DNA of 64,000 bases from Phyllosticta citribraziliensis. Lineage: Eukaryota. The stretch covers positions 930,001 to 994,000 of the forward strand of contig NW_027117342.1 of the NCBI RefSeq assembly GCF_038025025.1, read 5' to 3'. Shown here one piece after another: positions 4,394 through 7,222 of the stretch (the stretch's first letter is position 1; the number at the start of each line of letters is the position of its first letter). A program made the position numbers and the translations under genes. Below the pieces are notes generated by a model. That model ran no database searches. It saw only the letters and a program-made list of their open reading frames with translations, and was not told where the DNA came from.

Positions 4394-5096
4394 GCGTCAA
4401 GACGTGGAGAGATTTTCGACTTTTGCAATGACAGCACCATAGATGGAGTGGGGGGTTCTGTGTTGATAAAGCTGGTTTGGGGAAAAGAGTGCTGATGCGG
4501 CTCCCACATAGCCCCCCTTGAGCTACCGTTACTCTTCTCATTGGCAACGCTCGGCAAGGGAAGAAGAGGGTGGTGCTTGTATAATCTCATTCTCCTTTTT
4601 GTTCAGCGTGCCGTTGATTCCCTGGTGACGATCGGATGGAAGGAATTTAAGAAATAGACTTGGTTTCGTTTGCTTTCAAAACATTGAAAACATTGCCAAA
4701 AGGCGCACTTTGTGACTTGGATTGATATCAAATACCTACGTTGGCGACTGAATCGTCGTCCAAATCGGCGAGTCTTTCTGTCCTGTAACCAATCACACGG
4801 CGCTGAGAAACTAGCCCACGATCGACGACCCAAGCAAAACGCGACTCGCTCGGCAAAAGCGCTCCGCCAACGACCCGCCGTCCGCCCAACCAACACGCAG
4901 ACCGACCCGAGCGACCAAACAGGCAGACAACGCCGACGTCCCGAACAAAACCCATTCATCGACCGAGACCTAGGAATCACTGCCGCTACCACAGCCACCC
5001 ACAGCAACCGCAGCTTGACTCTTTGCAACGGGACCTACCGAATTGCCTGGTAGTCTACCTTGCCACGGGGTCGGGACCAGCAGGCAGATCTTCACC

Positions 5097-6454
5097 ATGG
5101 TCTACTACTTTAGCAGCAACGTCGTGTCGCCGGCGGCTTTTATCTACGTCGGCAAGGACAAGGTTGAAAGTGCGTTTTTCTTTTCCTCTTTGACTCTGTT
5201 TTGGTGCTGCTCTTTTTCTTGTTGGCCGAGGCTGCGGTGGCAGAGCAGACCCTAGTGATGGGTCTTTTTCTTTCTCTTTTTCACTTTCTTTTCTCCATCC
5301 TCCCTTCCTCTGCTTCTCGTTTTGTGGAATTGTCTTTTTGGTCGAGAGTACGCTGCAATATTAATTGCTCAAAGAGGAATTCGGGGGACAGAACTACTTT
5401 GGATGGGACGGCCTGATGCTGACGCTCCTGCGCCTTCTGCACAGACGAGGACTTGATCAAGTATGGATGGGAAGAGGATGTGTGGTGAGTTCATCTTCCC
5501 GTCGTCGCGATGTCAGACTCGCAGGACACGCATCGATGCCAGTAATTCTTCATTTAATCCATGTCTAACTACTACGGAAGGGTATGTACCGCACCGAACG
5601 TGCCTGAGCATCAAGCCGGCCAGCTCGCCAAAGTGGCTCGCCATGTCCACTGGGACTGGCAAGGGGAGGGGCCAAACGTGCCGTGATCCAAGCAAAATGA
5701 GCAGTAATTGATGTTTGGGGAATCGCAGTTCCACGTCGACAACCTCTCCTCGGCGCATATCTACCTGCGGCTGCCTGAAGGCTCGACCTGGGAAGACATT
5801 CCGGCCGACCTGCTGCAGGACTGCGCGCAACTGACCAAGGCGAACAGCATCGAAGGTACACGAATTCCCCTCCTCTTCCCCTCTCGCGTTCTCCCTCCCT
5901 CACTGCCAGACCCCAGTCTAACCTCCACCCCTCTCCGCACAACACAGGCAACAAAAAAGACAACATCACCATCATCTACACGCCCTGGTCGAACCTCAAA
6001 AAGGACGGCAGCATGGCCGTCGGCCAGGTCGGCTTCAAGGACAACAAGAAGGTCAAGCGCGTCTACGTCGCCGCGCGCGAGAACCCCATCGTCAACCGCC
6101 TCAACAAGACCAAGGTTGAGAAGTATCCTGATTTGCAGATGGAGCGCGAGGACAGGTTGAGGGAGCTGCGGAAGAAGGATCGCGCGGCTGTGCAGGAGAG
6201 GGTCAGTGTAGTCCCGTTTTTCCCCTGCTTTCCATTCTGCCGACTTTTGCTTTGCTGGAAAGGTGTCTGTCTGTCTTGATAGGACCCGTTACTGACGGAC
6301 CCAATAGAAGAAGGAAGAGGCGCGCATTGCAAAGGAGAGGAAGGAGATGGCGTGGCGGCGGGACCACGCGTATGACGACGTGCACACCGACGACGCCGTC
6401 TTTGCGGCGAGTAATCAGGACCGCGAGGAGGACTTCTTGGACGACTTCATGTAG
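5097..6454 (+). CDS. JLP2: Jlp2/CCDC25 NFACT-R domain protein; exons 5097-5169, 5445-5484, 5581 (1 nt), 5729-5855, 5948-6201, 6308-6454
   Basis: Spliced translation [53 protein letters not shown]...[42 protein letters not shown]...DDFM*, the typical CCDC25/Jlp2 pattern; the frame requires a 1-nt exon (see findings). Confidence 0.92.
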
Positions 6455-7222
6455 AGTGAGGCAAGGCGTGATGGGGCGAGACTTGTTGCTGCCATTACTG
6501 GGACGGCTCATGTTTTCTCGGACCAGTGAGGATGGAAGAAAGATCTTTGGGCCTCGGCCTCGTTCAAGAATACATCTCTGAAGTTGTTTCTATGCATAAG
6601 ATGGAACGCGTTTTGACGTGTCATTTCTGATTCGCGATTTGTCGGGAAAGTTGTGGTGCTGTATGACAGGCCTTCTTTTTCCAACGGATGTCTACAAAAT
6701 GCAAGTCTCTCTATAGGAATCAGCCACCGCAAGAGCGTACAAGGCTTCAGTAGAGTCCGTGCCCTGCTCCTCAGGAGCAAAGGAGCTGAACTGCGTCTCA
6801 CAGGCCGCCGTCTAGACATGCTTGAACATGCTTGCGATTGTGCCTCAGCATAAGCGTCAACTGAAAGACGGTATTGCTCGTCAGTCTGTGGGACTGAGTC
6901 GCGGACAAGATTGTCGCATGTGCCTGTTTTCCTGGCACACGCTTTACCAGGGCATGCTTTGATTTACAGGTGTGGGAGCTGACAGCCGCGAGATCCGCAG
7001 TGTGCCCTTAAGGCCTGGTGCTGGGCGTGACCCTTGAGGAGATGCTCACTACCCAAGACACTCCCAGGATCCGAGAGGAAGAACCAGGTGAGTGTTGGCC
7101 AAAAGATGGTTCAGTCCTCAACCATCATCAGTAGCCAGCACTGGCGTTTGCCATGTCGTGAGGCATTCTCGATTTGCCTTTCCTACAGGACTGGAAGAAG
7201 CTTGTGTGGGCTTTGTTTTCCT

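Follow-up and report, generated by a model that had tools for sequence, protein, structure and literature searches.

A one-nucleotide exon between two abutting introns in the CCDC25/Jlp2 gene of Phyllosticta citribraziliensis and the spread of its layout among fungal loci

The stretch of Phyllosticta citribraziliensis DNA analysed here (64,000 nucleotides (nt), positions 930,001 to 994,000 of contig NW_027117342.1 in assembly GCF_038025025.1, hereafter the window) was found to contain a five-intron gene of the CCDC25/Jlp2 type in which a single G at position 5581 is, with high confidence, a genuine and constitutive one-nucleotide exon. The 244-nt gap between exon 2 and exon 3 (5485-5728) is accordingly read as two complete, abutting U2-type GT..AG introns, 5485-5580 (intron 2a) and 5582-5728 (intron 2b). 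The mature product with one G retained and an intermediate that has lost only intron 2a were present among assembled contigs of public runs, and the layout itself was conserved in 27 of 73 scorable fungal loci. An earlier note on this DNA, made from its letters, had proposed two abutting canonical introns around a 1-nt exon that completes TGG, and the mature contigs, which skip 243 of the 244 nt and keep one G, bear this out; the coordinates given there (5484/5485, CTAAC, AAG, G5581, GTATGT, CAG and 5729) were all found to be exact in the sequence.

Structure of the gene and its product

The features of the gene are given below with the evidence for each in brackets; X1, X2, X5 and X6 are public runs.

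5097-6454, forward strand: five-intron CCDC25/Jlp2 gene (sequence, list of open reading frames, translation and RNA joints)
5097-5169, forward strand: exon 1, with ATG at 5097-5099 (sequence and translation; RNA joint from 5169 to 5445 in X2 and X5)
5170-5444, forward strand: intron 1, GTGCGT..CAG, 275 nt (GT..AG joint skipping 275 nt in X2 and X5)
5445-5484, forward strand: exon 2, with the 3′ end ...GAT GTG TG, the last two letters being bases 1 and 2 of the Trp codon (sequence; RNA contigs stop exon 2 at 5484)
5485-5580, forward strand: intron 2a, GTGAGT..AAG, 96 nt, with a branch-like CTAAC at 5565-5569, 12 nt from the 3′ end (96-nt GT..AG joint, cut +1, in X2 and X6)
5581-5581, forward strand: one-nucleotide exon G, very probably the third base of Trp-38, TGG (skip of 243 of 244 nt, enumeration of canonical solutions, conservation)
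5582-5728, forward strand: intron 2b, GTATGT..CAG, 147 nt, with a weak branch-like TTGAT 17 nt from the 3′ end (kept in X2 record 6 and X6 record 14; gone in the mature X2 and X5 contigs)
5729-5855, forward strand: exon 3, beginning with TTC CAC GTC GAC (F-H-V-D) and holding His-40 (Pfam NFACT-R_1 on exon 3 alone, E=6.6e-10; RNA joints)
5856-5947, forward strand: intron 3, GTACAC..CAG, 92 nt (GT..AG joint skipping 92 nt, cut +2, in X2 and X5)
5948-6201, forward strand: exon 4, which served as protein-search query (translation, Pfam NFACT-R_1 match on its own, RNA contigs)
6202-6307, forward strand: intron 4, GTCAGT..TAG, 106 nt (GT..AG joint skipping 106 nt, cut +1, in X2, X5 and X6)
6308-6454, forward strand: exon 5, with the stop TAG at 6452-6454 (list of open reading frames, translation, RNA contigs)

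The second donor GTATGT occupies 5582-5587 and the final acceptor CAG occupies 5726-5728. Translation with G5581 gave a protein of 213 amino acids (aa) containing ...EEDVWFHVD..., which differs at 0 of 213 residues from the annotated P. citribraziliensis protein (P0001). When 5484 was joined straight to 5729, a frameshift was obtained with a TGA at 5832-5834 after 72 codons, the early stop that the earlier note had described, whereas the use of donor 5480 with acceptor 5728 keeps the frame, loses V-W and yields 211 aa. The Pfam domain NFACT-R_1 (PF05670) matched the 213-aa form with 118.6 bits (gathering cut-off 29.8) over profile positions 1-112 of 112, and the score falls to 108.1 bits for the 211-aa form without V-W and to 85.7 bits for a 205-aa form annotated in relatives. 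By this full-length match above the gathering score, the predicted protein is CCDC25/Jlp2.

G5581 completes Trp-38, two codons ahead of His-40 in F-H-V-D. In the accessible part of a recent preprint, yeast Jlp2 is reported as a peptidyl-tRNA release factor that needs H44, with D46 also in the cavity, and H41 of CCDC25 is named as the residue orthologous to yeast Jlp2 H44 (bioRxiv 10.1101/2025.09.04.673968). The F-H40-V-D42 stretch of the window has the same H-x-D spacing as H44/D46 of that report, the two being matched by motif and not by protein alignment.

All GT..AG solutions in the junction region were enumerated. Only two single GT..AG introns were found to keep the frame, both from donor 5480, which was not seen in RNA, and the pair 5480/5728 is the only in-frame single canonical intron that retains F-H-V-D. 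Frame-keeping solutions with two introns and an inner exon of at most 12 nt numbered 30, and only 5485-5580, G and 5582-5728 reproduces the RNA.

Intron 1 is long for this gene and contains long T-rich runs; it was retained in an X2 contig (5265-5468).

RNA and genomic contigs across the junction

Four (X1, X2, X5 and X6) of 23 public runs were aligned to 5000-6550. The run data are assembled contigs, not reads, so that rare forms are dropped and contig depths cannot rank isoforms, and the kinds assigned to the runs ('RNA?', 'DNA?') are guesses. X2 and X5 were found to contain the canonical GT..AG joints of introns 1, 3 and 4, and X6 that of intron 4; these three runs therefore contain spliced RNA.

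The mature joint, 5484 to 5728, skips 243 of the 244 nt and was present in one contig of X2 and in a 1992-nt contig of X5, the latter also bearing the canonical joints of introns 1, 3 and 4. Exactly one G was left between ...GTGTG and TTCCAC in these contigs, so that the messenger RNA (mRNA) reads ...TGG/TTC... (slashes mark boundaries here and below). The ends of the joint were given by the aligner as GT..CA, with two letters fitting both sides (both=2), and since no placement of the joint yields GT..AG ends, no single canonical intron explains the 243-nt skip.

An intermediate was found in two runs of two studies. In X2 record 6 the segment 5485-5580 was removed, followed by colinear sequence over 5580-5757, and in X6 record 14 the same removal was followed by colinear sequence over 5580-5702. 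The earlier note had asked for partly spliced RNA of either kind; this upstream-first form is the one that was found, and its reciprocal was not seen. The depth of the intermediate in X2 was 30.9 and that of the mature pieces 49.8 and 118.4, values that are not usable as ratios. In the contigs of the four runs, which lose rare forms, no form with only 5582-5728 removed, no 244-nt skip with the G left out and no joint from 5479 (donor 5480) was seen, and X5, the deepest run, contained no intermediate contig. Use of donor 5480 and an extra G at an outer junction had been named in the earlier note as outcomes that would speak against its reading; the contigs showed neither.

An X1 contig ran colinear with the window from 5257 to 5719 and carried no extra base at either 5485 or 5581, and X2 contigs matched the window at both outer junctions. 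Together with the same one-base deficit in 27 loci, this colinearity of X1 and X2 indicates that no base is missing from the window. The low-depth contigs of X1 each lacked one base at 5335, 5878 and 6022, where X2 and X5, as far as they cover these positions, match the window; these deficits are probably errors of run X1 and not of the window.

Conservation of the layout among fungal loci

An alignment led by the exon-4 peptide was scanned against metagenome contigs, which gave 574 pattern matches and 223 confirmed relatives, of which the best 80 were taken further. Scoring required both flanking codon blocks, which were found in 73 of these 80 loci; the remaining 7 were incomplete. No intron was present at the W/F boundary (GTNTGGTTYCAY) in 41 of the 73 loci, 40 of which contain other intron-like inserts and are hence genomic. 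One phase-0 intron of 59-61 nt, TGG/GTAYG...AG/TTC, was present in 5 of the 73 (L002, L003, L004, L009 and L012). The layout of the window, TG/GT...AG/G/GT...AG/TTY, was present in 27 of the 73, and the upstream intron only (phase 2) in 0 of the 73.

Each of the 27 two-intron loci contained a single AGGGT, with an upstream half of 47-90 nt and a downstream half of 48-163 nt, and direct joining of the exons was out of frame in all 27. With the window added, 26 distinct sequences from the loci gave 27 distinct two-intron sequences. The nucleotides AG, G and GT, followed by a G at position +5 of the second donor, were conserved in 27 of 27 although the rest of the introns had diverged, so that the comparison of AG-G-GT across orthologous loci suggested by the earlier note came out in its favour. 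Position +3 of the second donor was occupied by A in 24 of 27, and the acceptor before the G contained C or T at -3 in 22 of 27. Most halves contained branch-like sites, and both halves were of normal fungal intron size.

The two donors differ at position +4. In the same 27 sequences A outnumbers T by 19 to 3 at the first donor, whereas T outnumbers A by 18 to 3 at the second (Fisher p = 2e-6, uncorrected for relatedness); first donors were mostly GTAAG or GTGAG, and second donors mostly GTATG or GTACG. The second donor overlaps the 3′ splice site of the first intron, and a weaker match of this donor to U1 would be one possible explanation of the difference.

Public protein models at the junction

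Three protein searches, with the best 120 taken from each of 1316, 1091 and 828 hits, together yielded 278 distinct proteins. The exon-2 motif is present in 214 of them, which thus cover the junction. Among the 214 proteins listed, 142 contained the correct x-W-F-H, 41 had dropped V-W in the manner of donor 5480, 18 contained a V-C... continuation (from reading through the frameshift, or from an acceptor within exon 3 that rescues the frame) and 13 carried other errors at the junction. Hence 72 of the 214 listed proteins, about one third, were mis-modelled exactly here, in line with the remark of the earlier note that gene finders overlook such exons. The V/I/L-W pair was kept in 142 of 142 correctly modelled proteins and in 41 of 41 intron-less loci.

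Among the mis-modelled proteins are models named for Phyllosticta, Diplodia, Lasiodiplodia, Botryosphaeriaceae, Chaetomiaceae, Verticillium and Pestalotiopsis, and also for Pyricularia, Sporothrix, Ophiostoma, Coniochaeta, Pseudogymnoascus and Thermochaetoides. They offer indirect evidence that the genomes concerned may share the one-base deficit.

In the 205-aa 'EEDVCAHIY' models of Diplodia, Lasiodiplodia, Coniochaeta, Humicola and Xylaria, the whole F-H-V-D stretch was gone. The P. destructans model P0161 follows the frameshift. The protein P0109 of Thermochaetoides thermophila (CTHT_0002520, 199 aa) was found to pass from ...EEDVW to LQEGQSW and is thus without F-H-V-D...L-S-S-A-H; in the matching locus L043 the one-base exon was present, with halves of 48 and 106 nt. 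The protein P0205, a 139-aa metagenome fragment of a fungal CCDC25/Jlp2 protein, carries the source name 'phage protein D' and is evidently mis-named.

Taxonomic spread and origin

Placement of the loci drew on their similarity to named proteins in 127 anchored columns, on a weakly resolved tree and on two further protein searches. The nearest named relatives of the two-intron loci were found in Sordariomycetes, Dothideomycetes and Leotiomycetes. Loci L014, L018, L020, L037 and L041 were nearest to Chaetomiaceae (92-94%), L043 was identical to Thermochaetoides thermophila P0109 on the 127 columns, and L028, L032, L058-L060 and L079 were nearest to other Sordariales. Pleosporales-like proteins were the nearest to L066, L070, L073 and L075 (80-87%), and two loci were Helotiales-like, L045 (84%) and L068 (about 75% to Mollisia and Hyaloscypha), followed by L080, which was nearest to Candelina (80%). 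The five single-intron loci were 98% like Aureobasidium proteins. The intron-less loci matched Cladosporium (99-100%), Didymellaceae, other Pleosporales and Cadophora (99%).

The gene tree (107 rows by 127 columns) was found to contain the three states in clusters, with at least 8 changes of state; 43 of its 89 inner branches were unresolved, and it can neither date nor root the gain of the introns. The class-level phylogeny of Dothideomycetes, Sordariomycetes and Leotiomycetes is accepted, and from the spread of the two-intron state over this phylogeny the simplest reading is that the state would be older than the split between Dothideomycetes and Sordariomycetes plus Leotiomycetes and would have been lost, wholly or partly, several times.

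The Aureobasidium-like structure, TGG/GT..AG/TTC, is the expected product of a precise loss of the upstream intron, and its intron layout is the same as that of the RNA intermediate. It may therefore have arisen by intron loss when a partly spliced transcript was reverse-transcribed; for stwintrons, the accessible text of one report argues along similar lines (PMC5587772). In the Aureobasidium-like contig L011, the one of the 41 intron-less loci that has no other intron-like insert, the 639-nt coding sequence is complete and uninterrupted, which sets it apart from its nearest relatives L002-L004. This contig may derive from complementary DNA (metatranscriptome) or be a processed copy.

Mechanism and alternative explanations

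A donor, a branch-like site and an acceptor are present in intron 2a and again in intron 2b, and each of the two would be removed as an ordinary intron by the machinery with which filamentous fungi recognise short introns (intron definition). Removal of 2a would join ...GTG TG to G5581 and create TGG/GTATGT, an ordinary exon-donor junction, and removal of 2b would then join TGG to TTC CAC and complete the codon. The scheme would resemble recursive splicing at an AG/GT ratchet point, except that a shift of one base leaves one G in the mRNA. The 3′ splice site of 2a and the U1 site of 2b (about -3 to +6) overlap, for which reason the two reactions are probably not simultaneous. Removal of 2b before 2a may also be possible. 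The earlier note had held that splicing must be sequential. The upstream-first intermediate agrees with that view, and an obligatory order of 2a and then 2b may be inferred from it, but the necessity goes further than the contigs, which allow the other order too.

Several points weigh against the reading of G5581 as a constitutive exon with an old and widespread layout. The sequence alone cannot tell which G (5485, 5581 or 5728) enters the mRNA. An AGGGT with both halves of at least 40 nt was present in 0.17 of the shuffles of the 244-nt gap of the window, against a mean chance of 0.025 per sequence over the 27 distinct two-intron sequences; because the internal signal of the window alone is not improbable, the case rests on the RNA joints and on conservation. 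The 2a-first intermediate, the sole one seen, could in principle be a side product, and assembled contigs of guessed kind cannot measure abundance, order or rare isoforms. The 27 loci are mutually related, hence their counts are not independent events, and the taxonomic breadth is approximate because the loci were placed only by protein similarity on a poorly resolved 127-column tree.

An unlikely variant of the same reading accepts the one-base exon and makes it a regulated switch: transcripts that lack the G, or that still carry intron 2b, would contain premature stops and so tune the output of Jlp2. The earlier note had raised such a switch through loss of the G, a proposal that finds no support in the contigs, from which rare forms are dropped. 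The 2b-retained form, assembled as a separate contig with an in-frame stop in both X2 and X6, is what such a switch would produce, and intron 2b of the window contains a weak branch-like site and no pyrimidine tract. However, the contigs contained no 244-nt skip and their depths are not comparable, and retention of weak introns is common and need not be regulatory. Retention of 2b places a premature stop two codons before His-40. Likewise unlikely is a fuller form of this idea, in which the G exon would predate the three-class split, may be the oldest and most widespread one known, and would persist because its removal in two steps is put to use, a slow 2b step acting as a checkpoint that sets the amount of the ribosome-rescue factor Jlp2.

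The gap could instead be a single non-canonical intron (5485-5727 with GT..CA ends or 5486-5728 with TG..AG ends) removed in one step, AG/G/GT then being irrelevant or a cryptic dead-end site. The aligner does present the mature joint as a single 243-nt skip with GT..CA ends, and the lack of an intermediate in X5 fits a single step. This explanation is nevertheless very unlikely, as the intermediate uses exactly the AG at 5579-5580 in two runs of two studies, 27 of 27 sequences preserve AG/G/GT and a strong second donor despite diverged introns, both halves have the size of normal fungal introns, mostly with branch-like sites, and the other introns of this gene are all GT..AG.

Still less credible is a functional mRNA made from donor GTGTGG at 5480 and acceptor 5728, which would encode the 211-aa protein without V-W that is annotated in several Phyllosticta and many Sordariales. 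It has in its favour that no other in-frame single canonical intron keeps F-H-V-D and that its form is found in 41 of the 214 listed proteins. Yet the joint from 5479 to 5729 was present in none of the four runs, whereas the 243-nt skip was present in X2 and X5; the V/I/L-W pair occurs in all 142 correct proteins and in all 41 intron-less loci, the Pfam score is 10 bits lower without V-W, and the 211-aa proteins are predictions.

An assembly error, by which the true genome would contain one more G at an outer junction (e.g. TGG/GTGAGT; TGGGTGAGT at 5483-5491) and a plain single intron would suffice, can practically be dismissed: the GG run at the end of exon 2 and the 1-nt deletions of X1 at 5335, 5878 and 6022 allow for such errors, but contigs of X1 (5257-5719) and X2 match the window at 5480-5490, 5575-5590 and 5720-5730, an extra G would make the net skip 244 and not 243, and the same deficit recurs in 27 independently assembled loci and has left its trace in 72 of the 214 listed protein models.

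Significance

The interest of the constitutive one-base exon lies in its age and spread, in its usefulness as a splicing substrate and in the annotations that it helps to correct. About one third of the listed public models (72 of 214) are wrong at this junction, and some of them are without F-H-V-D, the stretch with the histidine that is reported to be catalytic in yeast Jlp2. Such models are repaired by a simple rule: where an intron is over-long and its two ends differ in phase, AG/G/GT is sought inside it. As to mechanism, the gene provides a natural and deeply conserved substrate on which no exon-definition complex can form, and because of this and of the overlap between the U1 site and the 3′ splice site, it is a clean system for the handling of a one-base exon by the spliceosome. 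As to evolution, the three structures (both introns, the downstream intron only, and none) form a testable example of loss through a partly spliced transcript, and a one-base exon can stay stable over very long times. Among one-base exons the present one would appear, from its distribution, to be unusually ancient.

Comparison with known systems

One-base exons are already known. Unreported, as far as the literature searched extends, are their occurrence in this gene, an intermediate of the upstream-first kind, conservation of this breadth and the derived structures. Among the papers listed from that literature, which lies outside subscription journals, none was found that ties CCDC25, JLP2, DUF814 or NFACT-R to a one-base exon.

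The nearest system is the one-nucleotide exon of Fusarium CYP621A, which the accessible text describes as the first fungal and second overall case (Nelson & Syed 2026, PMC12940212). As in the window, a nuclear fungal gene contains a single G between GT..AG introns, with AG/G/GT, and the G lies inside a conserved motif, is confirmed by RNA reads and was overlooked by automatic models. Unlike the present gene, CYP621A encodes a P450, its G stands second in a Gly codon, the exon is reported within Fusarium and Nectria only (20-24 orthologues), and the portion of the report available presents no splicing intermediate or derived gene structures.

The exon of Arabidopsis thaliana APC11 is likewise, in the available text, a constitutive 1-nt exon, with AG before it and GT after it, that is essential for the frame, in a gene that had been mis-annotated (Guo & Liu 2015, PMC4674806). 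It differs from that of the window in belonging to a plant, in its base (A) and in its position 333 nt into a 422-nt gap with a long flanking intron. Its proof came from base substitution in reporter constructs, whereas the exon of the window is known from sequence and RNA contigs.

A long-read re-annotation of Coprinopsis cinerea counted 13 one-nucleotide exons, spread over 13 genes (PMC12230235). As far as its accessible parts go, such exons recur in a fungal genome and break gene models when overlooked, as in the present gene; its text gives counts only, and its three supplementary spreadsheets contain no list of the 13 exons.

Zero-nucleotide recursive splicing in Drosophila, as described in the available portions of two reports (bioRxiv 10.1101/006163, PMC8605326), shares with the window the adjoining acceptor and donor, the removal of the upstream part first and a new 5′ splice site. 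The Drosophila ratchet points are AG/GT, keep no base and lie in very long introns, whereas the window keeps one G (AG/G/GT) and its halves are short and self-sufficient. With one G retained, the site is not a zero-nucleotide recursive splice site and works alike only.

The stwintrons of Pezizomycotina (Fekete et al. 2017, PMC5587772; Kavalecz et al. 2019, PMC6616335) are, by the accessible text of both reports, similar in being complex intervening sequences with consecutive splicing, and in related species gene structures are found that fit the loss of one of the component introns from the DNA. A stwintron is defined by an inner intron that splits one of the outer intron's signals (donor, branch site or acceptor), the outer intron becoming functional only once the inner one is excised, and no base between the two is kept in the mRNA. 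Introns 2a and 2b are complete in the DNA, neither interrupts the signals of the other and the one base between them is kept, so that a stwintron reading was rejected.

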